A DNA stretch of 64,000 nt from Candidatus Latescibacterota bacterium (GTDB taxonomy: Bacteria; Latescibacterota; UBA2968). Shown here in pieces: positions 11,855-44,958 of the stretch (within the stretch, counting starts at the first letter, position 1; each line of letters starts with the position of its first letter). A program made the position numbers and the translations under genes. The stretch is from assembly GCA_965116885.1 (NCBI GenBank), contig OZ220741.1, forward strand, positions 5,216,001 to 5,280,000, given 5' to 3'. The notes under the pieces are model-generated. The model had not been told where the DNA came from, did no database searches, and saw nothing but the letters and a program-made list of their open reading frames with translations.

Positions 11855-14800
11855 ATGAAAACCTGCATTTTTCATTTTGCTATTTTTTTTGGTCTCATTC
11901 TATCGCCGCTGGCTGTCGTCCATGCTTCGTCCTCACCACCCGACAGCGTGCATTTCTGCTTGCCCTTCGATTACGAACAGTGGCGGCGGGATCATCCCCT
12001 TCCCGCCGCCAAGCGGCCAGCGGACCTGAATGTGGGCGAGCCGCGCACGGTGCGGATGATCTACTTCCTGCCGAATGACCGCCCGTATCGTGCGAAGGTG
12101 GTTCAGGATATGAAAGACAGGATCCGCGAGGTTCAGACATTCTATTCCGTATCCATGCAGGCGCGCGAACACGGGGACAGGACCTTCCGCCTTGAGACCG
12201 ATGCCGCGGGAGAACCGACGGTACACCAAGTGGATGGGCAACACGCCGATAGTCACTATCTTGACAATACATTCGAAAAGGTCCTGGACGAGACGGAGCA
12301 GACCTTTGACTTGAAACGGAATATATATCTTGTCGTAATCGACATCAGTACAGATGTCATTGATAGAGCAGCGGGAGGCAAAGCATTTCAGAACGGAAAA
12401 ACCGGCGGATTTGCGCTGGTTACCAGTGACGAAATGGATCCGTGGAATTACCACAATGTTGTCAGCCACGAATTGGGCCACACCTTCGGGTTGCAGCATG
12501 ATTTCCGCGCCCAGGCGTACGTTATGTCGTACGGGAACTTGCCAGAATCACAAATATCTGCGTGCAACGCCGGGTTTCTGGCCGCGCATACCTATTTCAA
12601 CCCGAATATTCCAACTGAAGCGGGATCACTTCCTACCATTGAACTGGTTTCTCCACTAACCTATCCGGAAGACACGGAGAGCGTCGCTGTCCGGCTCGAA
12701 GCCAGCGATTCAGATGGACTTCACCAGGTGATCCTGTTCACAGAAGACCGTGGAACTGAAGTGAAGTCGTGTCGCGGGTTGGCGGGAGAAAGAGAGGCCA
12801 CCGTTACAATTGATTATAACGGCGTAATTCCATCTCAGCACAATTGGGGAATATTTTCGAGTCTTTCCGATCCTCGTGTGCATCCGGTTGCGGTCATGGT
12901 CGCTGATGCGGCAGGGAACACGAACCATACGGAATTCACTCTTTCGGCCATCGAATCCGAATCGACGCTCCCCCGTCCTCAAGCTCTTGAAATAATCTCT
13001 GGAGATAATCAGCGAGGCACACCCGGTTCCGCATTGTCGCAACCCCTGGTTGTCGAAGTGAGGGATCAACACGGTAATCCGTTACCGGATGCAACCGTCG
13101 TCTTTACGGTTACTACAGGAGACGGTAAACTCAGCGGGAGGTTCACGCTGGAGAATGTAACAACCGATGCCAATGGCCGGGCAGAGCTTTTGCTTACCCT
13201 CGGTCCCGGCCTGGGCACAAACGCCGTTAAGGTATCTATAGAAGAACACTCGGAAACGTTTCACGCGGTGAGTCATGGACAATCCGTCACGCCCCCGAGC
13301 ATGGACGGTGCTTCACTTACATGGCAGCTACCCTACGGCGCAGTTGCCCGCCTGGGAACGGGCCGCCTCAGCCAGACCGAAAGAGCGGTTGTCTTTTCAC
13401 CCGACGGTCAACTCCTCGCCGTGGCAAAAAAAACGGGTGTCTGGGTTTACGATATCTCTACGTCCAAGCCGCTGGCACTGTTTCCCGCCGAGAAGGCGAT
13501 CAATTCCCTGGCGTTTTCGTCCGACGGAAAAACCATCGCATTTTCGGAGTTTATCTTCAACTTCCACGGTGGGGAAAACATCAACGTGCAGCTATGGGAC
13601 GTGGCAACCGGCACACAGACTGCCGCCATCGCTCAGGAAGACTGGAGCAAAGCAGTCGCCTTTTCGACAGACGGTACGCTACTGGCTACGGCGAATATAG
13701 ACGAGACCGTCACGCTGTGGAACGTGGCGACGCAGCGCAAGGTCGCTACCCATCAAGGCAAGCTCACCTCTACAGGGGCGGATTACCCCCTCCCTATGTC
13801 GTTTTCCCCAGATGACGCAATACTCGCTTTCGGGTCCAAACATGGAACCGTCAACCTGCTGGACGTATCAACGGGCACGCAGACTGCCAGCCTTGAAGGG
13901 CATACATATCCGGTCACGTCCATTTCCTTTTCCCCAAATGGTGCCACCCTTGCTTCCGGGTCGTGGGATAGAACGGTCAGACTCTGGAACGTGGCGACAC
14001 GTGAGAATATCGCCACCCTGAAAGGGCATACCGACAGGGTCAATTCCGTCACGTTTTTACGCGGCGGCACCACCCTTGCTTCCGGGTCGGACGATGGCAC
14101 GATCAAGCTGTGGGACGTGACGACAAATAGAAATACCACCACCTTCGAAGGACATACCGACGGAATTGGCTCGGTGGCGTTTTCATCTCAATCGAACACG
14201 CTCGTCGCAGGTGTTATCGACGGCTCAATCAAGCTGTGGGACGTAGCGTCGAGGGGCGTTATCAATGACCTCGATAAGGGAGGCTCGTTCACGTCCGTGG
14301 CGTATTCAGGAGACGGGACGATCCTCGCTCTGGGGTCAGATCGAACGATCAGGTTGTGGGACGTGGCAACAGGCACTGAAGTCGCCGTGCTCGAGGGCCA
14401 CACCGAGAAGATCAGTTCTCTGACATTTTTGCGCGATGGCAAAACCCTGGCCTCGGGGTCGCACGGCGAAGTCTATCTTTGGGATGTGGCGGCGCGACTT
14501 AAGATAGATTTCCTGTCAAGACCCGGATGCAGGATCGCGCATCTCACCGCGTCACCCAACGGGAAAACAATCGCTTCGGGAGGGATAAATGAGATCGTCT
14601 TGTGGGACCTGGAGACCGGCGCGCAGACCGCTATTGCTTACCCCACAAAGACCGTATCGTTTTCGCCCGATAGCAAGACACTCGTTTCGACTGGTTTCGA
14701 TAGGCTAATTCAATTTTGGGACGTGGACACACAGGAGAATATCGCCACTCTGGATCCAGATCCGGCTGACCCGACCATGGGTCAGCTTGGTAGTCAGATG

Positions 14801-15352
14801 TTGTTTTCTCCCGACGGGACGCTACTCGCCTCGGCGCTGAATTATGGTCCGCGGTTAAGTGTCTCTATCAAACTGTGGGAGGTGAGCACGAAAGCAGTTA
14901 TCGCCACCTTTGAAGAAATCGGAGCGGGTCAGATCCATTCCGCAGCGCTTTCCTCCGACGGCAGGCTGTTCGCCGTCGGGACAAACAATGGCGCAATTCT
15001 GCTGGTGGACACTGTGAAGAGAGAAAGCGTGACAACCCTGCGGCAGCCGAGTTCGGTTGTTTCCTTGTCGTTTTCGCCCGACGGTAGGGTGCTCGCCTCC
15101 GGGTCGGAGGATGGTACGGTGCTGCTGTGGGACGTTGCGCCTTACCTTGCGCCATCTATCCCCAACCCGGACTTCAACAGCGACGGGACCGTGGACATAG
15201 CCGATTTCCTGCTGTTCGCTGGCGCGTTCGGTCTGAGTCGGGGCGATGCGGGATATGACGCGCGGTTTGATCTGGATAGTGATGGCACAATTGGGTTTAG
15301 CGATTTTCTAATCTTTGGCGAAGCCTTTGGCAAAAAAGTGCCATCCAATTGA
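11855..15352 (+). CDS. Secreted multidomain protein: metzincin-like Zn peptidase, Ig-like (Big_1) domain, WD40 repeats, C-terminal dockerin-like EF-hand pair
   Basis: Signal peptide ending VHA; HELGHTFGLQH with YVMSYG Met-turn; ISGDNQRG..PLVVEVRD Big_1 signature; many LASGSxDxTVxLWDV repeats; PDFNSDGTVDIADFLLFAGAFG...DLDSDGTIGFSDFLIF. Confidence 0.85.
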   Translation: MKTCIFHFAIFFGLILSPLAVVHASSSPPDSVHFCLPFDYEQWRRDHPLPAAKRPADLNVGEPRTVRMIYFLPNDRPYRAKVVQDMKDRIREVQTFYSVSMQAREHGDRTFRLETDAAGEPTVHQVDGQHADSHYLDNTFEKVLDETEQTFDLKRNIYLVVIDISTDVIDRAAGGKAFQNGKTGGFALVTSDEMDPWNYHNVVSHELGHTFGLQHDFRAQAYVMSYGNLPESQISACNAGFLAAHTYFNPNIPTEAGSLPTIELVSPLTYPEDTESVAVRLEASDSDGLHQVILFTEDRGTEVKSCRGLAGEREATVTIDYNGVIPSQHNWGIFSSLSDPRVHPVAVMVADAAGNTNHTEFTLSAIESESTLPRPQALEIISGDNQRGTPGSALSQPLVVEVRDQHGNPLPDATVVFTVTTGDGKLSGRFTLENVTTDANGRAELLLTLGPGLGTNAVKVSIEEHSETFHAVSHGQSVTPPSMDGASLTWQLPYGAVARLGTGRLSQTERAVVFSPDGQLLAVAKKTGVWVYDISTSKPLALFPAEKAINSLAFSSDGKTIAFSEFIFNFHGGENINVQLWDVATGTQTAAIAQEDWSKAVAFSTDGTLLATANIDETVTLWNVATQRKVATHQGKLTSTGADYPLPMSFSPDDAILAFGSKHGTVNLLDVSTGTQTASLEGHTYPVTSISFSPNGATLASGSWDRTVRLWNVATRENIATLKGHTDRVNSVTFLRGGTTLASGSDDGTIKLWDVTTNRNTTTFEGHTDGIGSVAFSSQSNTLVAGVIDGSIKLWDVASRGVINDLDKGGSFTSVAYSGDGTILALGSDRTIRLWDVATGTEVAVLEGHTEKISSLTFLRDGKTLASGSHGEVYLWDVAARLKIDFLSRPGCRIAHLTASPNGKTIASGGINEIVLWDLETGAQTAIAYPTKTVSFSPDSKTLVSTGFDRLIQFWDVDTQENIATLDPDPADPTMGQLGSQMLFSPDGTLLASALNYGPRLSVSIKLWEVSTKAVIATFEEIGAGQIHSAALSSDGRLFAVGTNNGAILLVDTVKRESVTTLRQPSSVVSLSFSPDGRVLASGSEDGTVLLWDVAPYLAPSIPNPDFNSDGTVDIADFLLFAGAFGLSRGDAGYDARFDLDSDGTIGFSDFLIFGEAFGKKVPSN

Positions 15353-15430
15353 TCTATTTGCGCGCTCAACGTCACAATGTTTTAATACAACTCAGCATCT
15401 GTATGTATCCGTCTTTTCAGGAGGACTATC

Positions 15431-16570
15431 ATGAAAATCGCCGCATTAAAAACATTCGTCGTTCCCACAACGGGAAATTTTTTCGTCAAAGTCGAAACAG
15501 ACGAAGGCATTTACGGCCTGGGAGAAGCGGGCTTAAAGCGTCGCGGAACCGCGATTGCCGAAGTAATCCGCTCGTTTTCCCCAGACGTCATCGGACAAGA
15601 CCCCTTTCGGATTGAACATTTGTGGCAGGTCATGTTTCGCGGCGGATTTTTCCCGGGCGGCGTGGTACAGTCATCGGCAGTGAGTGCTGTTGACATTGCG
15701 CTCTGGGATATCAAAGGCAAAGCCCTGGGCGTACCCGTCTATGAACTCCTGGGCGGAAGAACCCGCGACAAAGTGGCGTGTTATCCGCATATTGGCGAAC
15801 GGGACAATATCGACCGCCTGGTCGCAAATTGTGTGCAACGACAGGAAGAAGGCTGGAAATTTGCCCGATGGGGCATGAGCGATCCCACAGATCCCAATGT
15901 ATTTGAACCTTCGCGCGCCGTGCGTCACGGCATCGAACAGGTAAAAGCCGTGCGCGAAGCCTGTGGCGATGATTTCGAAATCTGCGTCGATGTACACACG
16001 CGACTGGACCCCGCCTGGGTCATTGCATATTGCAAAGGCGTGGAACCCTATCGCCCATTTTTTATCGAAGACCCATTGCGCAGTGAAAGCACACAGAGCC
16101 TGCGCCTCGTGCGACAAAACACGCATCTGCCTTTGGCCATTGGCGAACAATTTGATAGCAAGTGGAAATTTCAGCAGGTAATCGAAGAGGACTTAATGGA
16201 CTATTGCCGCGTTGACCTCTGCATTGCAGGCGGTTTGACCGAAGCCAAAAAAATCGCGGGCTGGTGCGAGACACATTATATTCACCTGGCCCCCCACAAT
16301 CCACTGGGACCCGTGTCAACAGCAGCCTGCTTGCACCTGTGTTTATCCTCTTCTCTCGTCGGCGTACAGGAATTGCCCAGACCTCCCATGACCACCTTGA
16401 CAGATGTATTCCCCAAACAAATGCCCTATGCCAACGGCCATCTGCTCGTCCCCAAAGGACCGGGATTGGGCATTGAATTTAACGAAGACGCGATTGCAGA
16501 CGCATCTCCTCCCGAACCATCCACGGGCGCGGGATTCCGCCGTGAAGACGGATCGTACACAAATTGGTAA
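15431..16570 (+). CDS. Mandelate racemase family dehydratase (DgoD-like), copy B
   Basis: Same length (379 aa) as 10572-11711, 21 substitutions by my count (about 94% identical). Confidence 0.9.
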   Translation: MKIAALKTFVVPTTGNFFVKVETDEGIYGLGEAGLKRRGTAIAEVIRSFSPDVIGQDPFRIEHLWQVMFRGGFFPGGVVQSSAVSAVDIALWDIKGKALGVPVYELLGGRTRDKVACYPHIGERDNIDRLVANCVQRQEEGWKFARWGMSDPTDPNVFEPSRAVRHGIEQVKAVREACGDDFEICVDVHTRLDPAWVIAYCKGVEPYRPFFIEDPLRSESTQSLRLVRQNTHLPLAIGEQFDSKWKFQQVIEEDLMDYCRVDLCIAGGLTEAKKIAGWCETHYIHLAPHNPLGPVSTAACLHLCLSSSLVGVQELPRPPMTTLTDVFPKQMPYANGHLLVPKGPGLGIEFNEDAIADASPPEPSTGAGFRREDGSYTNW

Positions 16571-16584
16571 AAGGAGCATTACAG

Positions 16585-17367: not shown

Positions 17368-17390
17368 TTTAAAACAAAAGGAATTTCACC

Positions 17391-18647: not shown

Positions 18648-18661
18648 TCCTGGAGCACGCG

Positions 18662-23049: not shown

Positions 23050-24603
23050 ATGGCACGTTATCTATTTCTCGCACTATTGATGTTAATAACCGCTTGTGAA
23101 CAACAGACCGGGCGCACGGTTGTATTTGGGCGCGGTGGCGATTCCGTGGGACTGGATCCCGCGCTGGAGACAGACGGCGAATCGTTTAAAGTATGCGATA
23201 ATATTTACGAAACACTCGTCGCATTTGTGCCCGAACGCACCGACCTCGCACCCGGATTAGCCACTTCTTGGCAGGCATCAGAAGATGGTTTGACCTGGAC
23301 ATTTCAGTTGCGCGAAAATGTCGTCTTCCACGATGGCACGCCCTTTAATGCCGATGCCGTCGTCTTTTCACTCGCGCGGCAATTCAAGCCCGATCACCCT
23401 TTCAACAAAGTAGAAGGCGCGTATCAATACTGGGCAGGCATGTCCATGAGCGACATCGTAAAAGATGTCCGCAAAATAGACGACATGACCGTATCTATTG
23501 ACCTGAAACGCCCCAACGCACCCTTCCTCGCAAATCTGACAATGAATTTTTGCGCCATCGTCAGCCCTGTTGCCGTCGAAAAATGGGGAGCTGATTTTGC
23601 TCGGCATCCCGTGGGCACAGGCCCGTTTCGCTTTGTCGAATGGATAAAAGACGACCGCGTTGTATTGGAACGCAACCCCGATTATTGGGGACCTGCCCCC
23701 AAAATTGATCGCCTGATTTTTAGAAGCATTCCCGAAAATTCCGTCCGACTAATCGCCCTGACCCAAGGATCTATCGACGGCATGGACAACCTCGTGCCAG
23801 ACTTCTTACCGACAATTGAATCAGATGAAAATCTCGCCTTGCTGTCCCAGCCGGGGATGAACGTGGGCTATCTGGCGATGAACATGGACAAAGAACCATT
23901 CCAGAACCTCAATGTGCGGCGCGCCATAAACCACGCGATCAACAAACAAGCTCTGATCGACAACCTGTATCAGGGATTGGCCATTCCAGCGGTCAATCCC
24001 ATTCCGCCGACGGTCTGGAGCTATCGGCAAGAAACACCCGGCTATGAATACGACCCGGAAAAAGCCAGAGCACTCCTATCCGAAGCGGGATTTCCAAACG
24101 GATTCAAAACCACCCTCTGGGCCATGCCCGTACCGCGTCCCTATATGCCACAACCCCAGAAAATCGCCCAGGCGATCCAGGCCGATCTACAAACAGTTGG
24201 CATCGAAGCTGAAATCGTCACTTATGAATGGGGAACATATCTGGATAAAGTTCAGCGCGGGCAGCACGATATGGCATTGCTGGGCTGGACCGGAGACAAC
24301 GGCGACCCCGACAACTTCCTCTATATTCTGCTGGACAAAAGCGCGACTCAAATGCCAGCCAATAACATCTCCTTTTACCGCAGCGACCCCTTGCACGACG
24401 TGTTGGTGGCCGCCCAAAAGGAATCCGACAAAACAAAACGCACAGCCCTGTATCAAAAGGCACAAGAAATCGTCTTTCACGACGCCCCCTGGGTCCCCCT
24501 CGTACACGCGACCCAAACAGCGGCATTCCGCACCCGCGTCAAAGGCTTTAAGCTACACCCCACCGGGAGCAAATGGTTTCACGATGTGATGATTGAAGAA
24601 TAG
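23050..24603 (+). CDS. dppA: Dipeptide/oligopeptide ABC transporter substrate-binding lipoprotein (family 5)
   Basis: Lipobox ITAC, LATSW..SEDGLTWTFQLR, PVGTGPF, AMPVPRPYMP, GWTGDNGDPDNF (DppA-like). Confidence 0.85.
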   Translation: MARYLFLALLMLITACEQQTGRTVVFGRGGDSVGLDPALETDGESFKVCDNIYETLVAFVPERTDLAPGLATSWQASEDGLTWTFQLRENVVFHDGTPFNADAVVFSLARQFKPDHPFNKVEGAYQYWAGMSMSDIVKDVRKIDDMTVSIDLKRPNAPFLANLTMNFCAIVSPVAVEKWGADFARHPVGTGPFRFVEWIKDDRVVLERNPDYWGPAPKIDRLIFRSIPENSVRLIALTQGSIDGMDNLVPDFLPTIESDENLALLSQPGMNVGYLAMNMDKEPFQNLNVRRAINHAINKQALIDNLYQGLAIPAVNPIPPTVWSYRQETPGYEYDPEKARALLSEAGFPNGFKTTLWAMPVPRPYMPQPQKIAQAIQADLQTVGIEAEIVTYEWGTYLDKVQRGQHDMALLGWTGDNGDPDNFLYILLDKSATQMPANNISFYRSDPLHDVLVAAQKESDKTKRTALYQKAQEIVFHDAPWVPLVHATQTAAFRTRVKGFKLHPTGSKWFHDVMIEE

Positions 24604-24652
24604 ACGATCAATGTATCGGACATCTTTTTTTAGGGAATAGAAAATCTCACAG

Positions 24653-24687
24653 AAGCCCAACGGCCTCTTCCAAACCGTTGGGCTTTT
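24653..24687 (+). terminator. Intrinsic terminator after dppA
   Basis: AAGCCCAACGG/CCGTTGGGCTT stem followed by Ts. Confidence 0.7.
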
Positions 24688-25035
24688 CCTATTAGAGCCT
24701 CAATGGAACAGGTCAAAAGATTTAAAAATTGCCTATCAGTGTGGGTTTGTGTCTTTATCGACTTTTAGCAGGGCGTGCAAGACAAAAAAATAAAACCACG
24801 TATAAAAAAATGGAAACTGGGACAAATTCTGAACGTTAGGACAAAGGTTTGGCATTGATTTTAGAAACGTTTGTGTCGATTTTTTATAAATGTCAGTAAA
24901 AAAGTACCGTTCACGCAAATTAAGGTGTCTCAGATGTGATGCCAGGCACTATTTATACAAATGTCCTGACCGACCAGCCGGGCAAATCTGTTCACACTAT
25001 TGTGTAACTGAAGTCTTAAATGAAAAGAGAAACCA

Positions 25036-27792
25036 ATGCGTAACCTGATTTTGTTCACACTATCCACACTCGCGTTTTTAATACATCCGCTATTTCTTCC
25101 AGCGCAAAATAGCTTTTCTTTTTCCATAGAGGCGAACAGTGCGACGGGTGATCAAGCGATCACATCTGTTAATGTATCCCCGGACTTTGATGGCGATGGT
25201 ATGGTTGGCTTCTCTGACTTTTTGGCGTTTGTAGGTCTGTTTGGGTCACGTCAAGGCGATGGAAGGTATGAAGCGAAGTATGACCTGGACAGCGACGGCG
25301 CAATTGGATTTGCCGATTTTCTGATCTTTAGTGCCAGCTTTGGCAAAGAGGTATCTTCCCCAGGGGATGATGCAACGCAGGTTGCCATTCCGGATGCGAG
25401 CCTGCGTGCTGTTATTGCGGACAGTCTCGGCAAGGCGAGCGATGCGCCAATCACGCAGGCAGAGATGGCGACCTTAACTCACCTTGCTGCTCGGAACAAG
25501 AATATTCGCGATCTGACCGGGCTTGAGTTTGCTATTAATCTGACAGCGTTGGATCTCGAAGGAGAGGGAGTGGGTGTGGATGGAGAGTGGGTGAACAGCA
25601 ACGAGATATCCAACCTGTCGCCGCTATCTAATTTAACCCGTCTGGAACGACTGTATCTTTCCGGCAACAGCATATCGGATGTAGCATCGCTATCGAACTT
25701 GACCAATCTGGAAGCGCTGTGGCTTGACGTCAACAGCATATCGAATGTGGCACCGCTATCCAACTTGACCAGCCTAATAGGACTGGAGCTTTCCTTCAAC
25801 AGCATATCGAGTGTGGCACCGTTATCTAACTTGACCAGCCTAAGATCACTGACTCTTGCTGGCAACAGCATATCGAATGTGTCTGCACTGTCAGGATTAA
25901 CCAGTCTGGAATGGCTGGATCTTTCCTTCAACAGCATAGCGAATGTGGCGCCGCTATCTAATATGACCAGCCTGATAGAACTGGAGCTTTCCGACAACAG
26001 CATATCGAGTGTGGCACCGCTATCTAATTTAACCCGTCTGGAATGGCTGGGGCTTTCCGACAACAGCATCTCGGACCTCGCACCGCTGGTGGCAAATGCG
26101 GGATTGGGTGAAGGAGATTGGATTGAAGTAAGGAACAACCCCTTGAGTGCCACATCAATCAACACCCACATTCCAGCCCTTCAGAGCAGAGGGGTTAGTG
26201 TACTCTATACCCGTAGTGGCGGTAGTGGAGGCGGTGGTGGTGGCAGTGGTGGCAGTGCAACGGACGTTGTCATTCTGGATGAAAACCTGTATGAGGTCAT
26301 TGCGAACAGTCTCGGCAAGGCGTTCGGTGCGCCAATCACGCAGGCAGAGATGGCGACCTTAACTCGCCTTGATGCATCGAACGCGAATATTCGCGATCTA
26401 ACCGGGCTTGAGTTTGCTATTAACCTGACAGAGTTGGTCCTCGGTGTAGACGAAGGGAGCTTGTGGAAGGAGAACATCAATGAGCTACTCAACAACCCTT
26501 CGCTATACTTGACCTATATAATAGAACTATGGATTAACTTTTCCTTCAACCTTTCCCTCAACAGAATATCGGATGTGACACCGCTATCTAACTTGACCAG
26601 CCTAAGATTCCTGGATCTTTCCTATAACAGCATATCGGATGTGACGCCACTATCTAACTTGACCAATCTGGAAGTGCTGGATCTTTCCGGCAACAGCAGA
26701 TGGGAAGAGGTAGTGACGCCACTATCGGATGTGACGCCACTATCTAACTTGACCAATCTGGAAGTGCTGGATCTTTCCGGCAACAGCATATCAAATGTGA
26801 CGCCACTATCTAACTTGACCAGCCTAAGGACCCTGGATCTTTTCAAAACCAGCATAGCGAATATGTCTGCACTGTCAGGATTAACCAATCTGGAAGTGCT
26901 GGATCTTTCCTACACAAGCATATCGGATGTAACACCACTATCTAACTTGACCAGCCTAAGATTTCTGGGTCTTGCCAGCAACGGCATATCGGATGTGACG
27001 CCGCTTGTGACGCTTCTATCTAACTTGACCAGCCTAAGATCACTGACTCTTGCTGGCAACAGCATATCGAATGTGTCTGCACTGTCAGGATTAACCAGTC
27101 TGGAATGGCTGAATCTTTCCAGCAACAGCATAGCGAATGTGGCACCGCTATCTAACTTGACCAATCTAAGATGGCTGACTCTTATCGAAAACAACATATC
27201 TGATGTGATACCACTATCCAACTTGACCAATCTAAGAGCTCTAACTCTTATCGAAAACAACATATCTGATGTGACACCACTATCCAACTTGACCAATCTG
27301 GAATTGCTGGATCTTTCCCGCAACAGCATAGCGAACGTGACACCACTATCCAACTTGACCAATCTAAGATGGCTGACTCTTGACGACAACAACATATCGG
27401 ATATGACACCGATATCTAATTTGACCCGTCTGGTAGTGCTGCAACTTGACGACAACAGCATATCGAATGTGACACCGATATCTAACTTAATCAACCTGAT
27501 AGATCTGGATCTTTCCAGCAACAGCATCTCAGACCTCGCGCCGCTGGTGGCAAACACGGGATTGGGTGAAGGAGATGAGGTTGATGTGAGCAACAACCCC
27601 TTGAGTGCCACATCAATCAACATACATATTCCAACCCTTGAGAGCAGAGGGGTCGAGGTAGATTTTAGCGCATCGAAGCCCACTGTGAAAAACAAAGAAC
27701 TGAGGATGCCCCTCCGGATGATAGAACCGTTTGGAATGAAAAAATGGAAGGTGGGCGATAATTTGAAAAAAGATCGCTTGAATAATTTTTGA
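25036..27792 (+). CDS. Secreted internalin-like leucine-rich-repeat protein with N-terminal dockerin-like EF-hand pair
   Basis: Signal peptide; PDFDGDGMVGFSDFLAFVGLFG...DLDSDGAIGFADFLIF; two capped LRR modules of 22-aa repeats (NSISxVxPLSNLTxLxxLxL) joined by a Gly/Ser linker. Confidence 0.9.
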   Translation: MRNLILFTLSTLAFLIHPLFLPAQNSFSFSIEANSATGDQAITSVNVSPDFDGDGMVGFSDFLAFVGLFGSRQGDGRYEAKYDLDSDGAIGFADFLIFSASFGKEVSSPGDDATQVAIPDASLRAVIADSLGKASDAPITQAEMATLTHLAARNKNIRDLTGLEFAINLTALDLEGEGVGVDGEWVNSNEISNLSPLSNLTRLERLYLSGNSISDVASLSNLTNLEALWLDVNSISNVAPLSNLTSLIGLELSFNSISSVAPLSNLTSLRSLTLAGNSISNVSALSGLTSLEWLDLSFNSIANVAPLSNMTSLIELELSDNSISSVAPLSNLTRLEWLGLSDNSISDLAPLVANAGLGEGDWIEVRNNPLSATSINTHIPALQSRGVSVLYTRSGGSGGGGGGSGGSATDVVILDENLYEVIANSLGKAFGAPITQAEMATLTRLDASNANIRDLTGLEFAINLTELVLGVDEGSLWKENINELLNNPSLYLTYIIELWINFSFNLSLNRISDVTPLSNLTSLRFLDLSYNSISDVTPLSNLTNLEVLDLSGNSRWEEVVTPLSDVTPLSNLTNLEVLDLSGNSISNVTPLSNLTSLRTLDLFKTSIANMSALSGLTNLEVLDLSYTSISDVTPLSNLTSLRFLGLASNGISDVTPLVTLLSNLTSLRSLTLAGNSISNVSALSGLTSLEWLNLSSNSIANVAPLSNLTNLRWLTLIENNISDVIPLSNLTNLRALTLIENNISDVTPLSNLTNLELLDLSRNSIANVTPLSNLTNLRWLTLDDNNISDMTPISNLTRLVVLQLDDNSISNVTPISNLINLIDLDLSSNSISDLAPLVANTGLGEGDEVDVSNNPLSATSINIHIPTLESRGVEVDFSASKPTVKNKELRMPLRMIEPFGMKKWKVGDNLKKDRLNNF

Positions 27793-27838
27793 CACCTCGG
27801 TTTTCGCACCACCGAGAAATCACTTTGTGGTCACAAAT

Positions 27839-27877
27839 AAAAACGGCAGTGAACTGTAATACTCACCGCCGTTCTTT
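27839..27877. terminator. Probable bidirectional terminator between LRR gene and doc
   Basis: AACGGCAGTGA/TCACCGCCGTT stem with A- and T-rich flanks between convergent genes. Confidence 0.6.
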
Positions 27878-27985
27878 ATATTTTTGTGTTAGATTAAGAA
27901 ACAGATTGCAGCACGCAACACCTGTACTGGCTCTCGCCTTATCTACCCCGTCTAATTTTAGACGCTCCGATAACAGCGTCCCCTT

Positions 27986-28372
27986 TTATCTCACTTCATC
28001 AATATGATCCGTCAACCATTCGATCAGTTTATTACGAGAAACATCCCCTGAAGCAAGTCCTAAAATGACTTGTTCCTGATCATCTACGGAAGCATAAATT
28101 TCATATCCATTCAGGACCAACATGACTTCCATAGCAGCATGTCCTACTCGCTTGTTTCCATCAATGAACGGGTGATTTTGAACCAAGGAAAAACTCAATG
28201 CAGCAGCTTTTTCAATCAGAGTCGGGTAAAGATCACGACCTCCAAACGTCATATGGGGCTGGGCGATGGCTGATTCCAATCCGCCGAGGTCACGTAACCC
28301 CGTCGATCCACCACTTTCTTCAATAATACGCCGATGAAGTTCTAACACTTCACTCAGACTGATATAACGCAT
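27986..28372 (-). CDS. doc: Death-on-curing (Doc/Fic) family toxin
   Basis: HPFIDGNKRVG motif, GLRDLGGLESA, LYPTLIEKAAAL. Confidence 0.9.
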   Translation of the reverse strand: MRYISLSEVLELHRRIIEESGGSTGLRDLGGLESAIAQPHMTFGGRDLYPTLIEKAAALSFSLVQNHPFIDGNKRVGHAAMEVMLVLNGYEIYASVDDQEQVILGLASGDVSRNKLIEWLTDHIDEVR

Positions 28373-28563
28373 TAACTCAACCTTCGATAGAGTCCTCGAT
28401 TCTTCTTCAGGACATGCTCTGCAGCGTGCTCAAAGTCTGCATCTGAATGTAAAAGGTCGGTTAATGCTGCCTTAGCCAATTTCTCCACAGGAACATTCAG
28501 TCGTTTAGCGGTCGCTTGTAAGCGTTTGACCTCATTTTCGGATAAATCCACAGAAAATTTCAC
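28372..28563 (-). CDS. Putative antitoxin (ribbon-helix-helix-like) of the Doc toxin
   Basis: 63 aa, TAATG overlap with doc, C-terminal KKNRGLYRRLS helix typical of Doc partners. Confidence 0.75.
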   Translation of the reverse strand: MKFSVDLSENEVKRLQATAKRLNVPVEKLAKAALTDLLHSDADFEHAAEHVLKKNRGLYRRLS

Positions 28564-28653
28564 ATTTTGTCTCCCAATAAAAAATATTTTGAGCTATATG
28601 TGCATCTCGTTGATCCAACTATCCCACCCTTCGACATAAATAATGCTTAATTT

Positions 28654-28682
28654 TTAGTAACAATAAATAACACGATTGTCAA
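28654..28682 (-). promoter_or_regulatory. sigma70-type promoter of the TA operon
   Basis: Minus strand TTGACA(28682-28677)-17-TACTAA(28659-28654). Confidence 0.5.
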
Positions 28683-28753
28683 GGGTTTAGTTATATTTGA
28701 GTTCATTCCGCTTTTAAAACTCTATTCTCATCACCTTCTCAAAATCGCTTCCC

Positions 28754-29764
28754 ATGCACATCTACATCCTCAAAAGACTACTGGCACTGATCCCCACCCT
28801 ATTGGGCATTACAGTGCTGGTATTTTTTATGGTCCATCTCGTACCAGGAGATCCCGCACAGATCATGCTGGGCGAACGGGCAAGTGCCGAAAGTCTGGCA
28901 GCCTTGAGACGCGATCTGGGTTTAGATCAGCCCTTGCATGTGCAATTCGGACGCTATCTATCCGACCTGGTGCAAGGCGACCTGGGCAGGTCCATTAAAT
29001 CGCACGAACGCGTATCCGTCGAACTAATGGCGCGTTTCCCCGCCACCATGGAACTCACCTTCGCGAGCATGGTATTCGCCTGCATACTCGGCATTGGTGC
29101 AGGAGTAGCATCCGCAGTTCGACGCGGCACCTGGTGGGATTATATCGGCATGACAGCATCCTTAGCAGGCGTCTCAGTGCCAATATTCTGGCTGGGATTA
29201 TTGCTCATCCTCGCCCTTGCAGTCTCCCTACCGCTATTCCCCGTCTCCGGACGGCTCAGCTCCCATGTATTTATACCCACACTAACTGGATTCTACCTTA
29301 TAGATAGCTTGATCGCAGGTGATCTTCCCAGTTTTGGCGACGCACTCTGGCATTTGATCTTGCCGGGCATAACCCTGGGCACCGTGCCCGCCGCTGTTAT
29401 CGCGCGCATGACCCGGTCGAGCTTGCTGGAAGTCCTGCGCGAAGATTATGTACGCACCGCCTGGGCAAAAGGCTTATCTGAACGGGTCGTCATCTTGCGT
29501 CACGCACTGAAAAACGCGTTCATCCCCGTCTTAACCGTAATCAGCTTGCAATTCGGTTATCTACTGGGCGGCGCCGTCTTAACCGAAAGCATCTTTGCCT
29601 GGCCCGGGGTCGGGCGCTGGTTGCTCCTCTCGGTTTACGCACGCGACTTTCGGGCAATACAAGGGGGCGTACTAATCGTCGCTACGACCTTTGTCCTAAT
29701 CAACTTAATCGCAGATCTATTATACGCCTATCTGGACCCACGGATCAAATACGGTAAGGAATAA
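28754..29764 (+). CDS. dppB: Dipeptide ABC transporter permease
   Basis: YILKRLL, PGDPA, GLDQPL, HLILP, EDYVRTAWAKGL (EAA loop). Confidence 0.9.
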   Translation: MHIYILKRLLALIPTLLGITVLVFFMVHLVPGDPAQIMLGERASAESLAALRRDLGLDQPLHVQFGRYLSDLVQGDLGRSIKSHERVSVELMARFPATMELTFASMVFACILGIGAGVASAVRRGTWWDYIGMTASLAGVSVPIFWLGLLLILALAVSLPLFPVSGRLSSHVFIPTLTGFYLIDSLIAGDLPSFGDALWHLILPGITLGTVPAAVIARMTRSSLLEVLREDYVRTAWAKGLSERVVILRHALKNAFIPVLTVISLQFGYLLGGAVLTESIFAWPGVGRWLLLSVYARDFRAIQGGVLIVATTFVLINLIADLLYAYLDPRIKYGKE

Positions 29765-29773
29765 CGCCTCACA

Positions 29774-30643
29774 ATGGCACACATTCAAGACACCTTACAA
29801 ACACCACCGCAAACCACCGCGCTATTGATCTGGCAGCGCTTGCGAAAAAACCGTCTCTCCCTTGTGGGCAGTATATTGATCGGAGGCTTTCTACTCCTGG
29901 CATTCACAGCGCCATTAATCGCTCCCTCCGATCCAATGGCGCAGGCACTCTACAATCGACTATCGCCCCCAACGCTCGAACACCCGTTCGGCACAGATGA
30001 TTTTGGCCGAGACATATTGAGCCGCGTCATCTATGGCGCGCGGATCTCTCTGCGCGTTGGCGTATTCGCCGTACTGATCGCCCTCATACTGGGCACCTGC
30101 ATCGGAGTCGTCGCTGGCTATTGGGGGGGATGGACAGATCAAATATTGATGCGTCTGATGGACCTGCTACTCGCCTTTCCGAGCATATTGCTCGCAATCG
30201 GCATCGTGGCTATTTTGGGACCCGGCCTGGAAAATGCCATGTTGGCCGTCGGCATTGTGGCTATGCCGCAATATGCGCGCCTGATTCGCGCGTCCGTCTT
30301 AACCGTGCGAGAAACCGATTATGTCATGGCCGCACGCGCTCTGGGAGCATCGGATTGGCGCATACTATGCGTAGCCGTCTTGCCCAATTGTCTCGCCCCA
30401 CTGATCGTCCAAGCGACATTGGGATTGGCAACCGCGATCCTCGACGCTGCTGGACTGAGCTTTCTTGGCCTGGGCGCACAACCCCCAACACCCGAATGGG
30501 GGGCGATGCTGAGCCAGGGACGCGAACTGATTGTGCGCGCACCCTGGGTACTCACCTTTCCCGGAGGAGCGATCTTTTTCACAGTACTGGCATTTAATCT
30601 GGTTGGCGATGGTCTGAGGGACGCGCTGGATCCAAAGGCTTAA
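29774..30643 (+). CDS. dppC: Dipeptide ABC transporter permease
   Basis: HPFGTDDFGRDILSRVIYGARISL, LSFLGLG, GDGLRDALDP. Confidence 0.9.
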   Translation: MAHIQDTLQTPPQTTALLIWQRLRKNRLSLVGSILIGGFLLLAFTAPLIAPSDPMAQALYNRLSPPTLEHPFGTDDFGRDILSRVIYGARISLRVGVFAVLIALILGTCIGVVAGYWGGWTDQILMRLMDLLLAFPSILLAIGIVAILGPGLENAMLAVGIVAMPQYARLIRASVLTVRETDYVMAARALGASDWRILCVAVLPNCLAPLIVQATLGLATAILDAAGLSFLGLGAQPPTPEWGAMLSQGRELIVRAPWVLTFPGGAIFFTVLAFNLVGDGLRDALDPKA

Positions 30644-36615: not shown

Positions 36616-36618
36616 TCA

Positions 36619-39495: not shown

Positions 39496-39548
39496 ACGGT
39501 TCACAATGCAGATATCAGCGGGGATGAGGCTGTTACCCAGAACTCGTA

Positions 39549-40118
39549 TCACTCATCCCCGCTTTTCATCTGCGCGTCTAAAATAGCACTTCCCTCCCTA
39601 TTCTCTCTCATGCGGGCAAAATACGATTCTTCGTGCCCTTCTGCCGAGAGCACCATCACATCCCGCATATATTCACCACTCTCATCCCTCTGTTGCTCTA
39701 ATCGCAACATCATCACATATTCTGTTCCCGGGTCGCGTAGCCAGGGCACCAGGGGATCTACATCAACCAGCTTTCGAGGTTCTGCCCCACTAAAATCCAC
39801 ACCTGTGGAAGTATGAACGGTAAACTTAATCTGCTCATTGCGCATATCGTAAACCACCTGCCCTTTTTCCACAAAATTTCTTTGAATATGGGGCTCCTGC
39901 ACCGTCAGTGAATACGTACTGTCGCTGAGTACGAGAATGGTAATTTCTCGATCCAGATCATCTTCTCCACGTATCCCGGTCTCGCTCCCGGCATACATAA
40001 ACCATGCGCCCATTGGCGTATCCAATTTTTGTCGTGTCGCAATTTGCTCTTTCTTTTTTTCCTCCCCAGCACATGCCGCGATCAGACACAATAATACCAT
40101 ACCCAATACCTGTTTCAT
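39549..40118 (-). CDS. Hypothetical lipoprotein
   Basis: MKQVLGMVLLCLIAAC lipobox after GGAGG; true start 40118. Confidence 0.7.
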   Translation of the reverse strand: MKQVLGMVLLCLIAACAGEEKKKEQIATRQKLDTPMGAWFMYAGSETGIRGEDDLDREITILVLSDSTYSLTVQEPHIQRNFVEKGQVVYDMRNEQIKFTVHTSTGVDFSGAEPRKLVDVDPLVPWLRDPGTEYVMMLRLEQQRDESGEYMRDVMVLSAEGHEESYFARMRENREGSAILDAQMKSGDE

Positions 40119-40188
40119 AAACCCTCCATATATAAAAACGGCCCAAACAAAAATTTGGACCGCTCGCCTATTTTCCGTGTGATGTACA

Positions 40189-41343
40189 CTATCCTCCAAA
40201 TGCTTCTTTAAAGCGCTCAAAAAAACCTTTCCCACCCTCTGGAGGCTGAATGTTTTCCAATTTGGCCAACTTGGCAAACAACTCCTCTTCTTCCCGGCTC
40301 AATTTTGCCGGCGTCCAGACCGCCACGCGCACGAGTTGATCGCCCGTGCGATATCCATCCAATTCGGGAATGCCCTTACCGCGCAATCTAAAAATCCGCC
40401 CCGATTGTGTACCCGCAGGGATCTTCATACTCACGCGACCAGTCAGGGTCGGCACTTCTATATCTGCGCCCAGAGCTGCCTGGCTAAAACTGATGGGCAA
40501 ATCGTACACAATATCGTTACCGTGTCTTTCAAAATATTCGTGTTCTTCTTCTTCCACAAAGACCATACAATCGCCCGCAGGCCCGCCATTTGGCCCGGCA
40601 TTGCCCTGCCCCCGCAGCGGAATATAATTGCCTTCGGAAATACCTGCGGGGATATTGACCGAAAGGTCCTTCTGCTTCTTCACTCGTCCTTGTCCGTGGC
40701 AACTGTCACATTGCTCGCGCACCACGTTTCCATTGCCATTGCACTGCGGGCAAGTTGTGACATTGACAAACTGCCCAAACAAGGAGCGCGTCGCCTGCCG
40801 AATCTGTCCCACGCCACCACACATATCGCAGGTTACGGGCGCACTTCCCGGTTTTGCCCCAGCACCTCCACACGTATCACAGGTTTCCAAACGCGATAGC
40901 CGAATGGTTTTTTGAGCACCCTCGGCAATCTCCTCTAAGGTCAAACTGATCGAAATCCTCAAATCCTCACCGCGATTTGACCGCCGTGGGCTGCGCCGAC
41001 CAAACAAATCGCCAAAAATGCCTCCGCCAAAGATCTCATCCAGATTGGAAAAAATATCTTGAAAATCACCGGCATGCGAAAAGTCTGACCACTGAAAGCC
41101 ACCGCCCCGGAAGGTACTGCTGACGCCTTCGTGCCCAAAGCGGTCATACGCCTGTCGCTTTTGTGCATCCATCAGCACTTCATAAGCTTCGGCGCCTTCT
41201 TTGAACATTTCCTCTGCCTGGGGATTGTCCTTATTGCGATCCGGGTGATATTTCAGTGCGTGCTTGCGATAAGCTTTCTTAATCTCATCTTCCGAAGCTC
41301 CGCGATCCACCCCCAATATCTCGTAATAATCTCTTTTGGCCAT
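40189..41343 (-). CDS. dnaJ: Chaperone DnaJ
   Basis: HPD J-domain, G/F region, four CxxCxGxG repeats. Confidence 0.97.
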
Positions 41344-41405
41344 TGACCTTTCCCATCAACATGCAAAAAGAGCCGCGCTGTTGCGACCCTGTTTATTTTT
41401 TCAAT

Positions 41406-42062
41406 CTAACTTTTATCTGCCTCCGCGTCCTCTTCCTGGACCTCCGGTGCAGGCTTGCCCTGGCTTACCACCACTTTCGCCGGTCGCAGCACCTTATCGC
41501 CCAGACTATATCCTTTTTCAATCTCATCTGAGACAATACCGACATCGTGGACTTCAGATGGCATTTGCATCAATGCCTCATGCACATTCGGATCAAATGG
41601 TTTGCCAACAGTCTCAATTTCTTTCAGATTGCGATTGTAGAGCACGCGCGGAAATTGCTCCATAATCATTTTTATGCCTTCTTGAAAGCCCTCCGACTCT
41701 GTATCCCCATTTTCGCTGTGTGCCAATGCGCGACCAACACCATCTAAAATGGGCAATAAATCGCGAATCACATCTTCGCTGGCAGATTCTACAAGAATCT
41801 CAAATTCTCGCGCCCTGCGTTTTTTGTAATTCTCAAACTCAGCGGCAAGACGCATCCACCGCTCTTTGTACATTTCGGCTTCTTCGCGGGCCAAAAATAA
41901 GGGAGTAGCCTCTATCTTCTCCTTTGGCTCCTCCGATTCATCAGTCTTCCCATTAACCTCATCTTTCGCTACCTCTACCTCCGCACCTTCCGACACATCC
42001 CCATCTTCCACGACTTCTTCTTCCAGTGATATTTCTTCTTTTTTTTCTTTTTTCTGCGCCAT
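41406..42062 (-). CDS. grpE: Nucleotide exchange factor GrpE
   Basis: AEFENYKKR, FDPNVHEA, LRPAKVVV. Confidence 0.95.
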   Translation of the reverse strand: MAQKKEKKEEISLEEEVVEDGDVSEGAEVEVAKDEVNGKTDESEEPKEKIEATPLFLAREEAEMYKERWMRLAAEFENYKKRRAREFEILVESASEDVIRDLLPILDGVGRALAHSENGDTESEGFQEGIKMIMEQFPRVLYNRNLKEIETVGKPFDPNVHEALMQMPSEVHDVGIVSDEIEKGYSLGDKVLRPAKVVVSQGKPAPEVQEEDAEADKS

Positions 42063-42085
42063 GATTTTTCAACAACTCCTTTACC

Positions 42086-43111
42086 TTACCTGCGATCCAA
42101 CATCTCTTCTGTCAGATTTGCCATATATTGCACCAGAGGAACGAGCCGCCCATAGGGCAATCGCGTTGGCCCAATAATCCCGATAACACCCGACACATTG
42201 CCCACCGAATACGTAGAAGTCAGCAAACTGCAATCCTTGAGCGCGGGCGATTCGTGTTCATCTCCAATCGTGATGGAAATACCCGCATCGCGCGCGCGGT
42301 CACTCAACAAATGCGCTACGTATTCACGAGCTTCCAGCATACCAATCAGACCGGCCAGACGTTCACTGGAAAAATCGGGCTGACCAAAAAAATTGCGCGT
42401 ACCATCCATATGCAGATCGGCACTGCTCGGAAATCTGAATAAATGATCGGCACTATTGGCAAGCAAATGCAACAGCTTAGGAGACCCAGACGATGCGGAC
42501 GCAAGCCGTTCTTTGACAGACGCCATAATCTCGCCTATAGTAAGCCCAGAAAGCCGCTGGTTGACCACCCGCCGCGTTTCTTCCAACTCGTTTTCTTCAA
42601 TTTCTGAGTCGATTTCGACAACCATAGTCTTGACCAGTCCAGACCGAATAGTCATCACCGTCAGCAGCTTGGATTCGCTCAACTTGAGCATTTCTAAACG
42701 CTCAAAAATGCCCTGGGTAAATTGAGGGCCAAGGGCAATACCCAGATTGTGCGATACATCGGCCAAAACTTTGGACACTTGCACCAATAAATCATCGGCG
42801 TTGCCCTCTCGCAACCGCTCAACACTATCCCGAATAGACTGCTGTGCAGCCTCGGCGAGTTCCTCCCGATTCATCAGCATATCGACATAGTACCGATATC
42901 CCTTATCGCTCGGCACCCTCCCGGCTGAAGTGTGAGGCTGGTACAAATAGCCTTTTTCTTCCAGGTCGGCCATCGAGTTTCGAATGGTCGCCGCGCTGAG
43001 TCCCAAATCCATCTTGGAAATTGTGCGCGACCCCACTGGCTCGCCCGTGGTGACATAAGTGCCAATTAAAATATCGAGAATTGCTTTTTCCCGAAGTGTC
43101 AGTTCGGTCAT
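42086..43111 (-). CDS. hrcA: Heat-inducible transcription repressor HrcA
   Basis: GEPVGSR, SAATIRNSMADLE, QPHTSAGRVP, IGPTR. Confidence 0.96.
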   Translation of the reverse strand: MTELTLREKAILDILIGTYVTTGEPVGSRTISKMDLGLSAATIRNSMADLEEKGYLYQPHTSAGRVPSDKGYRYYVDMLMNREELAEAAQQSIRDSVERLREGNADDLLVQVSKVLADVSHNLGIALGPQFTQGIFERLEMLKLSESKLLTVMTIRSGLVKTMVVEIDSEIEENELEETRRVVNQRLSGLTIGEIMASVKERLASASSGSPKLLHLLANSADHLFRFPSSADLHMDGTRNFFGQPDFSSERLAGLIGMLEAREYVAHLLSDRARDAGISITIGDEHESPALKDCSLLTSTYSVGNVSGVIGIIGPTRLPYGRLVPLVQYMANLTEEMLDRR

Positions 43112-43238
43112 AGCATGTCCCTTTCCGTCTGAATGAAAGGGGAAGAAAACGACCTATCCGCGTTGATACAAATCGAATATGCAAAATAGTTTAGTCTATG
43201 ATATATATAGGAAGAGCCAGCGATTGTCAAGCCCCATC

Positions 43239-43277
43239 AAAAAACGGGCTGGCCGACTTATCTGACCAACCCGTTTT
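43239..43277 (-). terminator. Terminator downstream of the CxxCH/dockerin protein gene
   Basis: AAAACGGGCTGG/CCAACCCGTTTT stem. Confidence 0.6.
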
Positions 43278-43299
43278 CGATCTCAGACCTGTCTATTTT

Positions 43300-44958
43300 T
43301 TAACCTCCATCCACTGGCTTGCCAAAGGCATCGGCAAAGAGCAAAAAGTCGGAAAATGCGACCCTACCATCCCCGTCCAAATCAGCCGCGGCATTGTATC
43401 CCGGCACCCCCTCGCTCGTGCCAAAAGCAGCAGCAAAGAGCAAGAAATCGGAGAAATCGACATTCCCGTCACCATTCAGATCAGCACTGCGCGTCTGAGA
43501 CGGTGCATGCCGTATCACGATTAACGCTTGAATTGTGGTCTCGGAAAGAGGCAATCCCAAAACAGAGACGGTATCTCCCACCATCAGATCAGAAATGGGA
43601 AAAATAAGTTGGATAAGATCATCAATATTGCCGGAAAAAAATATGGCAATAATATCCTCAGGGTTCCGCTGATCGAGAGTAATCATCAAAGCCTGTGAGA
43701 CATCCACGCTCACCTGTTGACCATTGCGTTGGATGGAAAACGAATTCGTTTCAGCATTCACACTCTGAACACTGACCGCTCGAATGTCAACGGGTTCCGG
43801 CGGCGTTTGCAGCATAATTTGCAAATCAGTTACACTGGCACCATTGACCACTTGAATCAGTGCCCCGGGATCGACTTCACCTGTGAAGAGATTGATGCCA
43901 GAAAAATGAGACATCGTCACAACATTTCCATCTCCATCAACCACATCTTGACTGAGACTGAGGGCATACGCCCCATCCGGCACATATTGCAACGCAAACG
44001 CCAGTTGTTCCGGGAGGGATTCAGCAGGACTAAGGGGAGAAACGCGCACAATAGCGGATAAAGCCAGAGCAAAGAGATCCTCGTCCCCGTCATCACCAGC
44101 AGAAGCGAGTAGCGCAGCCAATACGTCGGGCTTGTACAGGGTGGCTACTCCCGGTTCACTGATCTGCACACCTTGCGGCAAGACAGCGGTCCCAGAAACA
44201 ACGGCATCTGGCAATGCCACCGTCCCGAAGAAATACTGCTGTACGTCGCTCAACATCATCCCTGCGCCCGAACCGCCAATGATCATCTGATAGGTCGCAT
44301 CCGCGGACAAATTGAGGGTGGCTGTCACTTTCAGGCGATCTTCGCTGACGGCCAAATCCGTTGCCGTTGCGAGCAAAGCAAAGGGAAATGCCAAAATCTC
44401 AACATTTTCAATCGCAATCCCTTCTACAGGGTCAAGAGTGACAATGAGTGGTTGATCAAATGTAATTTCAATCGGCTGCATCCCACTCGGCACGACCGAC
44501 CCCATCATATTGCTCATCATCGCTTCCGAGATTGTCACGCCGCCAATCACAACAGAAGTCGCCGAAGGCGCACCTCCGGGCGGTGGCATCTGCATAAAAC
44601 TATTGGGATCCCCGGGATTTGTCACCGGAATACTCGCATCTATCGTACCATCGCCATCGGGATCACCCAATTCTTGACCATTGGACACGCCATCGCTATC
44701 TGAATCGAGCATTGCGAGCATGGCATTCCACACAACCTGCCCGCTACGACCGGGCTGCGTTAGATAATTGTTGTTGATATCCCTACCAAAAGGCGTGAGA
44801 GTACCACCGCCACCTGGATTCACATGACACGAAGCACATCCAAGTGCCCTGCCATTGGGTAGCTGATCAACCCGTGCTGGACGGGCATCTGCCTGTCCCC
44901 ACCCAACAAAAACAAGGACCAGGACCGTTAGTACTCTGTGAGAGTTCAACCGCGACAT
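43300..44958 (-). CDS. Secreted protein: N-terminal CxxCH temptin-like domain, Ig-like and DUF5666-like regions, C-terminal dockerin-like EF-hand pair
   Basis: Signal peptide ending ADA; LPNG..CASCHVNPGGGG..PFGRD..W..DSDSDGVSNGQELGDP; ADLNGDGNVDFSDFLLFAAAFG...DLDGDGRVAFSDFLLF; ATG 7 nt after GGAGG. Confidence 0.75.
   Translation of the reverse strand: MSRLNSHRVLTVLVLVFVGWGQADARPARVDQLPNGRALGCASCHVNPGGGGTLTPFGRDINNNYLTQPGRSGQVVWNAMLAMLDSDSDGVSNGQELGDPDGDGTIDASIPVTNPGDPNSFMQMPPPGGAPSATSVVIGGVTISEAMMSNMMGSVVPSGMQPIEITFDQPLIVTLDPVEGIAIENVEILAFPFALLATATDLAVSEDRLKVTATLNLSADATYQMIIGGSGAGMMLSDVQQYFFGTVALPDAVVSGTAVLPQGVQISEPGVATLYKPDVLAALLASAGDDGDEDLFALALSAIVRVSPLSPAESLPEQLAFALQYVPDGAYALSLSQDVVDGDGNVVTMSHFSGINLFTGEVDPGALIQVVNGASVTDLQIMLQTPPEPVDIRAVSVQSVNAETNSFSIQRNGQQVSVDVSQALMITLDQRNPEDIIAIFFSGNIDDLIQLIFPISDLMVGDTVSVLGLPLSETTIQALIVIRHAPSQTRSADLNGDGNVDFSDFLLFAAAFGTSEGVPGYNAAADLDGDGRVAFSDFLLFADAFGKPVDGG

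Follow-up and report, generated by a model that had tools for sequence, protein, structure and literature searches.

Three proteins with predicted signal peptides, encoded in one stretch of DNA from a Candidatus Latescibacterota bacterium (contig OZ220741.1, positions 5,216,001 to 5,280,000; this whole stretch of 64,000 nucleotides is called the window), carry the same module of about 60 residues. As judged by profile comparison and predicted fold, the module is a genuine dockerin. The three copies belong to one dockerin family with 71 copies in the genome, and the probable receptors are three cohesins placed on type IX secretion system (T9SS) cargo. Together they probably serve a non-cellulolytic surface display. 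I infer that cohesin and dockerin bind each other, that the binding depends on calcium, and that the assembly is located at the surface; the way in which the cargo would cross the outer membrane is likewise a proposal. A sequence-only reading of the window had described the modules as dockerin-like tags on unrelated secreted proteins and had proposed a non-cellulosomal scaffold displaying eukaryote-like repeat proteins, a peptidase, and a heme protein, possibly for host interaction.

The dockerin family

The modules lie at the C-terminus of gene 1 (11855..15352, plus strand; module 15167..15349), at the N-terminus of gene 2 (25036..27792, plus strand; module 25180..25353), and at the C-terminus of gene 3 (43300..44964, minus strand; module 43303..43485). 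Translation bears out the paired DxDxDG loops and F-x-D-F-L-x-F-x-x-x-F-G helix repeats described earlier: in each module, a 12-residue calcium loop (D-x-D-x-[DN]-G) plus a helix occurs twice, with about 12 residues in between. The column statistics of 59 modules from the genome read D-x-D-x-[DN]-G-x-V-x-[FI]-x-D-F-L-x-F-x-x-x-F-G, twice, and repeats 1 and 2 are near-symmetric in sequence. A hidden Markov model (HMM) built from the three window modules recovers each of them at E 1e-21 to 4e-22 among 41,372 six-frame open reading frames (ORFs), and chance is thus excluded. The scores with my own HMM are 78.9, 79.6, and 77.8 bits for genes 1, 2, and 3. When the isolated modules were compared with Pfam Dockerin_1 (PF00404; cut-off 22.9 bits), two of the three passed (gene 1, 24.3 bits; gene 3, 37.3 bits). 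Genome-wide, 37 of 67 Dockerin_1 matches are flagged above the cut-off, 27 of them by their own score.

The alignment of the 59 modules, with the gene 3 module as its first row, was the basis of a profile search against the PDB and of an AlphaFold2 model. The best match of the profile is the Cel48 dockerin of Pseudobacteroides cellulosolvens (2y3n_B, E 1.9e-13), in which both repeats are spanned, followed by the X-dockerins of Acetivibrio cellulolyticus ScaA (E 1e-10). Calmodulins follow at E of about 1e-7, without any single significant stretch. The model has a predicted local distance difference test score (pLDDT) of 92.5. In a Foldseek search, no match reached E<=1e-3 because the domain is short; ranks 1 to 24 are dockerin-containing chains, mostly from cohesin-dockerin complexes, with query-based template-modelling scores (TMq) up to 0.82 and root-mean-square deviations (rmsd) of 1.2 to 1.5. 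EF-hand proteins such as calmodulin, troponin, and GCaMP give TM scores of 0.21 to 0.31 and rmsd of 7 to 11. Thus, the dockerin-like character of the tag is confirmed by Pfam, by the PDB profile, and by the predicted fold.

How widespread is the family? The genome is a single closed contig of 5.56 Mb, estimated to be 98% complete, and an HMM iterated from the window modules found the dockerin in 71 of the 41,372 ORFs. The module is N-terminal, right behind the signal peptide, in 33 ORFs, C-terminal in 31, and internal in seven. Separate N-terminal and C-terminal classes were considered and ruled out by the mean identities, which are 55% among N-terminal modules, 53% among C-terminal modules, and 52% between the two. 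A heuristic signal peptide is present in 68 of the 71 ORFs, so that the tag does not sit mostly on non-secreted proteins. At least one of the three ORFs failing the rule, a DUF1501 protein, begins with an RRDF motif of the twin-arginine translocation (Tat) type, and a dockerin sulfatase has the same motif. These motifs suggest that some cargo would be exported already folded.

The cargo was classified by Pfam, with each of the 71 proteins counted once. There are 12 leucine-rich repeat (LRR) proteins, six WD40-type propellers, and 11 polysaccharide-active proteins (a PL8 chondroitin lyase, a chondroitinase B, three DUF4955/pectate-lyase-like proteins, a sulfatase, DUF1501, BNR_4, an esterase, GH10, and GH113). 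Two peptidases (S8 and M8) fall outside the other classes; altogether, five dockerin proteins have a peptidase domain, those of the M10, M66, and reprolysin-like types being located on LRR or propeller proteins. The rest comprises 12 members of other families (GSDH, SNase, HmuY, YHYH, redoxin, and others), six proteins with immunoglobulin-type domains only, one Temptin_C protein, two cohesin carriers, and 19 proteins with no family beyond the dockerin. Of the 16 LRR_4-bearing ORFs in the genome, 12 have a dockerin. The payloads in this genome-wide count are mostly non-cellulolytic, with LRR and WD40 proteins, glycosaminoglycan lyases, sulfatases, and peptidases. Since GH10 and GH113 are the only classical plant-wall enzymes, and no cellulase family appears in the Pfam tables of the 71 proteins, the system is not a cellulosome. 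The suggested non-cellulosomal display of eukaryote-like repeat proteins agrees with this cargo, which is overwhelmingly non-cellulosomal and rich in repeats. At the GH10 locus (genome 961618-963061), the GH10 gene, itself equipped with an N-terminal dockerin, is overlapped at its 3′ end by an ORF of 87 aa whose dockerin is partly degenerate; the small ORF may be a frameshifted second dockerin.

Cohesin carriers, export, and rival readings

No cohesin had been seen in the window. With Pfam and with a cohesin HMM built from Pfam Cohesin matches, exactly three ORFs with a confident cohesin were found in the genome. Each has a single cohesin, and a type A T9SS C-terminal sorting domain follows it directly. 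Carriers A (genome 1016718-1020467, minus strand; a stop-to-stop frame of 1250 aa for a protein of about 1230 aa) and B (genome 1020490-1025574, minus strand; 1695 aa for a protein of about 1615 aa) are tandem giants, and at the end of both a divergent dockerin is followed by some 20 linker residues, the cohesin, and the sorting domain. The third, carrier C or the minimal anchor (genome 4084152-4084994), has 268 aa and consists only of a signal peptide, the cohesin, and the sorting domain. Immediately downstream of carriers A and B lies a 722-aa ORF (genome 1014536-1016701) with a T9SS sorting domain and otherwise no family match; the three genes form a tandem of T9SS cargo.

Carriers A and B score 47.9 and 32.7 bits with Pfam Cohesin (PF00963; cut-off 24.1 bits), and the minimal anchor is 39% identical to carrier B across the cohesin and the tail (E 8e-47). 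When the last 319 aa of carrier B were modelled, the cohesin part reached a pLDDT of about 80 to 90 and is predicted to be a flattened beta-sandwich (jelly-roll) of the cohesin fold. This part has 268 PDB matches at E<=1e-3, and the top ones are cohesins; the best are from Clostridium perfringens (2w1n, E 1.6e-12; 2vo8, target-based TM score (TMt) 0.87 and rmsd 1.9). As for the sorting domains, TIGR04183 (cut-off 23 bits) gives 31.2 bits for the minimal anchor and 40.3 bits for carrier B, while that of carrier A was recognised by Por_Secre_tail (25.6 bits) and FlgD_ig (43.5 bits) of Pfam. A fourth candidate cohesin in the N-terminal part of carrier A was rejected (Pfam 17.7 bits; hhalign probability 0.57%, E 0.1). 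The scaffold idea holds in so far as there are cohesin carriers with T9SS sorting domains; a multi-cohesin scaffoldin is absent, and three single-cohesin carriers are found instead. Because the genome does encode cohesins, none of the three outcomes that would have spoken against the sequence-only reading was obtained: a candidate partner is present, the tag is mostly on proteins with signal peptides, and the predicted fold superposes on dockerins rather than on plain EF-hands (TM about 0.25).

Is this common among relatives? I compared 41 genomes, namely this genome and 40 others of the same order, covering two families and eight genera. Cohesin, dockerin, the module of dockerin, cohesin, and C-terminal domain (Doc-Coh-CTD), and the SprA translocon are present in all 41. 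Of 8000 sequences scored, 5045 are homologous to the minimal anchor at E<=1e-5. Among the matches listed, the closest ones have 268 to 269 aa, are labelled Latescibacterota or Gemmatimonadota, and are unnamed, 'hypothetical', or 'T9SS type A sorting domain-containing protein'. For many of the 120 homologues listed, the precomputed Pfam column contains no cohesin.

In the genome itself, SprA is clear (634 bits against a cut-off of 200). A sorting domain is found in about 12 proteins, namely the three carriers, four proteins with a Cache domain, two with LTD, one with FG-GAP, and two unknowns. There is no enzyme among them; it is dockerins that enzymes and adhesin-like proteins have. With 155 bits, the best PorV-like gene (C1:5787-6755) lies directly upstream of a dockerin-GSDH gene and a sorting-domain FG-GAP gene.

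Under the favoured reading, the cohesin carriers would be exported by Sec, pass through the SprA translocon, and be fixed on the outer membrane. The dockerin-tagged cargo would then plug into them in a calcium-dependent manner, one option being that it docks after release from the cell by an unrecognised route. This would yield an exchangeable, non-cellulolytic display in which LRR and WD40 proteins stand beside glycosaminoglycan lyases, sulfatases, peptidases, and many unknowns.

Several points weigh against this reading. The minimal anchor cohesin scores 23.4 bits, which is 0.7 short of the Pfam cut-off, and a profile of the minimal anchor family searched against the PDB gave the FlgD-like tail alone and no cohesin. 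On the dockerin side, the gene 2 module (21.2 bits) is just short of the Dockerin_1 cut-off, and the genome-wide signal peptides come from a crude hydrophobicity rule that I devised, not from a trained predictor. Only three confident cohesins stand against 71 dockerins. The PorU-like (261+78 bits, cut-off 420) and PorV-like (cut-off 250) components are both under their curated cut-offs, and a search for GldM gave no match, but the control genomes had no match either. Finally, the dockerin cargo is equipped with Sec or Tat signals but lacks a sorting domain, and neither a secretin nor a GspE-type ATPase nor GspF was found in the genome (of 14 known genomes, the same searches were positive in 6, 13, and 13, respectively). 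Thus, the cargo has no recognisable route across the outer membrane.

This last point leads to a different route, in which cohesin-sorting-domain proteins would serve as adaptors for secretion and not just as receptors at the surface: dockerin cargo, already folded, would be bound in the periplasm, and the T9SS signal of the carrier would take the complex through SprA. I regard such piggy-back export as unlikely, although several observations are in line with it. The genome, closed and 98% complete, has no match to secretin, GspE, or GspF. While SprA is universal in the 41 genomes, a secretin occurs in only five of them, none of which belongs to this genus (21 genomes). Secretin-less genomes have more dockerin matches (11-60, median 30) than secretin-bearing ones (8-24, median 12) and fewer cohesin matches (median 3 versus 9), but these kin are not independent and the contrast may rest on two or three evolutionary events. 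The absence of enzymes from the sorting-domain proteins, with enzymes and adhesin-like proteins dockerin-tagged instead, and the PorV-like gene adjoining both a dockerin gene and a sorting-domain gene would also fit. The T9SS moves folded proteins, as stated in the accessible part of a review (PMC9251779), but no report of T9SS co-transport of a non-covalent partner was found in the literature search. Moreover, vesicles or an unrecognised pathway could carry the cargo instead, and cargo of up to about 2180 aa would need to follow through the pore. A bolder form of this idea has the same low probability. In it, type II secretion would have been lost from the lineage, and cohesin-sorting-domain adaptors would open the T9SS to more substrates. 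A 60-residue dockerin would replace the covalent C-terminal sorting domain, so that dozens of folded periplasmic proteins, Tat substrates included, would ride on three carriers across the outer membrane and be displayed at the cell surface of what is probably a sponge associate.

It is also rather unlikely, to much the same degree, that the dockerins act without cohesins, as calcium-dependent tags with a stabilising or matrix-binding role, attached to proteins that are periplasmic or released. The few cohesins would then serve only the giant carriers' own divergent dockerins. The excess of dockerins over cohesins and the position of a dockerin about 20 residues upstream of the cohesin in both giant carriers speak for this view, and many diderms have their sulfatases and exo-acting enzymes in the periplasm. 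Against it, all 41 genomes contain cohesin together with dockerin, the minimal anchor lacks a dockerin yet is strongly conserved, with a length of 268 to 269 aa, and the cargo dockerins form a tight symmetric family, as one shared receptor would predict. Binding in cis inside the giant carriers was examined with a Doc-Coh-CTD model and set aside: the individual domains are modelled with confidence, but the predicted TM score (pTM) is 0.47 and the linkers have pLDDT <50, so that no inter-domain contact can be read and no fixed arrangement favours it.

Lastly, it is hardly conceivable that the modules are ordinary EF-hand calcium sensors without a docking role: Pfam EF-hand models also match the loops (about 24 to 30 bits) and calmodulins appear in the PDB profile search, but dockerins beat them by six orders of magnitude and the predicted fold superposes on dockerins with TMq of 0.7 to 0.8.

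The three window genes and a hint of habitat

The payloads of the three genes are unrelated by Pfam, as had been noted, and all three proteins have Sec-like N-termini, judged by eye and by the crude hydrophobicity rule. Gene 1 is an ORF of 1165 aa. A signal peptide (about aa 1-24, by eye) is followed by a reprolysin-like metzincin (aa 65-249, with HExxHxxGxxHD near aa 205), a Big_1-like domain (aa 398-462), WD40 beta-propellers (about aa 505-1100), and the dockerin. The Pfam scores are 266.8 bits for WD40, 33.6 for Reprolysin_5 (cut-off 27), and 29.2 for Reprolysin_4 (cut-off 22); Big_1, at 33.4 bits, is under its cut-off of 34.9. Gene 1 is flanked by a pair of MR/MLE enolase-superfamily genes (window 10572-11711 and 15431-16570) encoding 379 aa each, a direct duplication with 94% protein identity.

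Gene 2 encodes 918 aa, with a signal peptide (about aa 1-23, by eye), the dockerin right behind it (residues 49-106), and two internalin-like LRR blocks (about aa 113-841) as the payload. The protein is an internal duplication: each block has the same N-terminal cap and C-terminal cap motif, and a Gly/Ser-rich linker lies between them. LRR_4 scores 237 bits in Pfam, and matches to the NCBIfam internalin models are far under their cut-offs, indicating only the LRR architecture. Gene 2 is located inside a peptide ATP-binding cassette transporter locus (window 23050-30643), between the SBP_bac_5 gene and two permease genes. A 128-aa Fic/DOC gene (27986-28372, minus strand) is also placed there, behind gene 2.

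Gene 3 probably starts at ATG 44958, giving about 552 aa: a signal peptide, a Temptin_C domain with CxxCH (44653-44883, minus strand), about 380 aa without a family match, and the dockerin. Temptin_C scores 40.8 bits (cut-off 27). The CxxCH falls within this domain, and a diheme model gives only 16 bits against a cut-off of 300; the earlier 'heme protein' is thus a putative assignment from one CxxCH motif. The neighbours are hrcA-grpE-dnaJ on one side and glnA on the other. The order hrcA, gene 3, glnA is colinear across all 4643 bases in seven same-genus genomes (86-92% identity) among 20 relatives searched, and it appears as two adjacent pieces in eight further ones. Since the locus is syntenic across the genus, gene 3 is not a recent insert, and the earlier description of the genes as inserts between conserved genes fails here.

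For window 39500-47000, contigs of RNA libraries from three runs, two of them labelled sponge metagenome, were compared. Such contigs cannot give an expression level, and the libraries may contain DNA. Contigs match hrcA-grpE-dnaJ and glnA, in one run with differences at just 1-3 positions per 300-680 bases, and the run with the near-exact match has no contig over gene 3. A further run contributes short contigs at 43312-43557 (differing by about 8%) and 43669-43823 (about 3%). The contigs with a sponge-metagenome label that match genes beside gene 3 give a weak hint of a sponge association of the organism.

Known systems and meaning

The system resembles the type I pairs of clostridial cellulosomes in several respects. 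Shared features are the dockerin made of a duplicated 22-residue calcium loop-helix with internal symmetry, the beta-sandwich cohesin, dozens of dockerin-tagged secreted proteins per genome, and single-cohesin proteins fixed, here putatively, to the surface. The closest dockerin structure is 2y3n_B, and the complexes of C. thermocellum OlpA and OlpC (3ul4 and 4dh2) are further comparison structures. In contrast to clostridial cellulosomes, there is no multi-cohesin primary scaffoldin here (no search aimed at carbohydrate-binding modules, CBMs, was made), the N-terminus is the site of 33 of the 71 dockerins, and only two of the 71 cargo proteins have plant-wall glycoside hydrolase domains (GH10 and GH113), with no cellulase family in the Pfam tables. 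The anchor also differs, being a T9SS sorting domain in a diderm instead of the S-layer homology domains or sortase of monoderm clostridia.

The closest solved cohesin folds to carrier B come from glycoside hydrolases of C. perfringens (NagH/NagJ, 2ozn; 2jh2, 2vo8, 2w1n), whose dockerin matches as well. In that species, cohesin-dockerin pairs join enzymes attacking animal glycans, not cellulose. However, enzyme docks to enzyme there, in a Gram-positive pathogen without a surface anchor of the T9SS type, and the sequence identity to the carrier B cohesin is only 10-23%. A 2009 review by Peer et al. reportedly deals with cohesins and dockerins outside cellulosomes, across all domains of life.

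A cellulosome-like complex has been predicted in silico for the Cloacimonadota 'Ca. Stygibacter' (Williams et al. 2021, PMC8542988). According to the accessible sections of that paper, it is likewise a diderm of the FCB group, with dockerin enzymes that have signal peptides and include an S8 peptidase, and with a cohesin protein whose conserved C-terminal domain was tied by the authors to T9SS-type attachment at the surface. In those sections, 'Ca. Stygibacter' is described with one scaffoldin of 3755 aa bearing tandem cohesins and CBM2/CBM3, whereas three single-cohesin carriers and 71 dockerins are found here, with cargo of mainly LRR, WD40, and glycosaminoglycan-active proteins; the problem of crossing the outer membrane is not raised in them. 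In the same phylum-level group are the Latescibacteria 'cellulosome-affiliated enzymes' of Farag et al. (2017), secreted enzymes linked to cohesin-dockerin assembly, as far as they are cited in the accessible part of PMC7081726. The words dockerin, cohesin, and cellulosom- do not occur in Youssef et al. 2015 (PMC4454575). Literature searches for dockerins in sponge symbionts, judged by title and abstract, and for dockerins and cohesins of Poribacteria found nothing relevant. The system is a non-cellulolytic form of a known principle of assembly, one that had been predicted before for uncultured relatives. To this principle are added here a full dockerin census in a closed genome, the placement of all confident cohesins on T9SS cargo and of dockerins on enzymes and repeat proteins, and the absence of type II secretion.

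The lack of type II secretion genes poses the question of how dockerin cargo finds its way across the outer membrane. The significance would be high if piggy-back export were true and moderate otherwise. The large family of 268-aa anchors, once recognised as cohesin receptors, would improve the annotation of many genomes. If the binding holds, the type IX pathway would give the organism a surface display of the plug-and-socket kind, with eukaryote-like repeats and enzymes for animal matrix glycans and without cellulases. The displayed proteins might then take part in host interaction and, if so, the system would offer a concrete and testable mechanism for the display of host-interaction proteins by an uncultured, probably sponge-associated bacterium.

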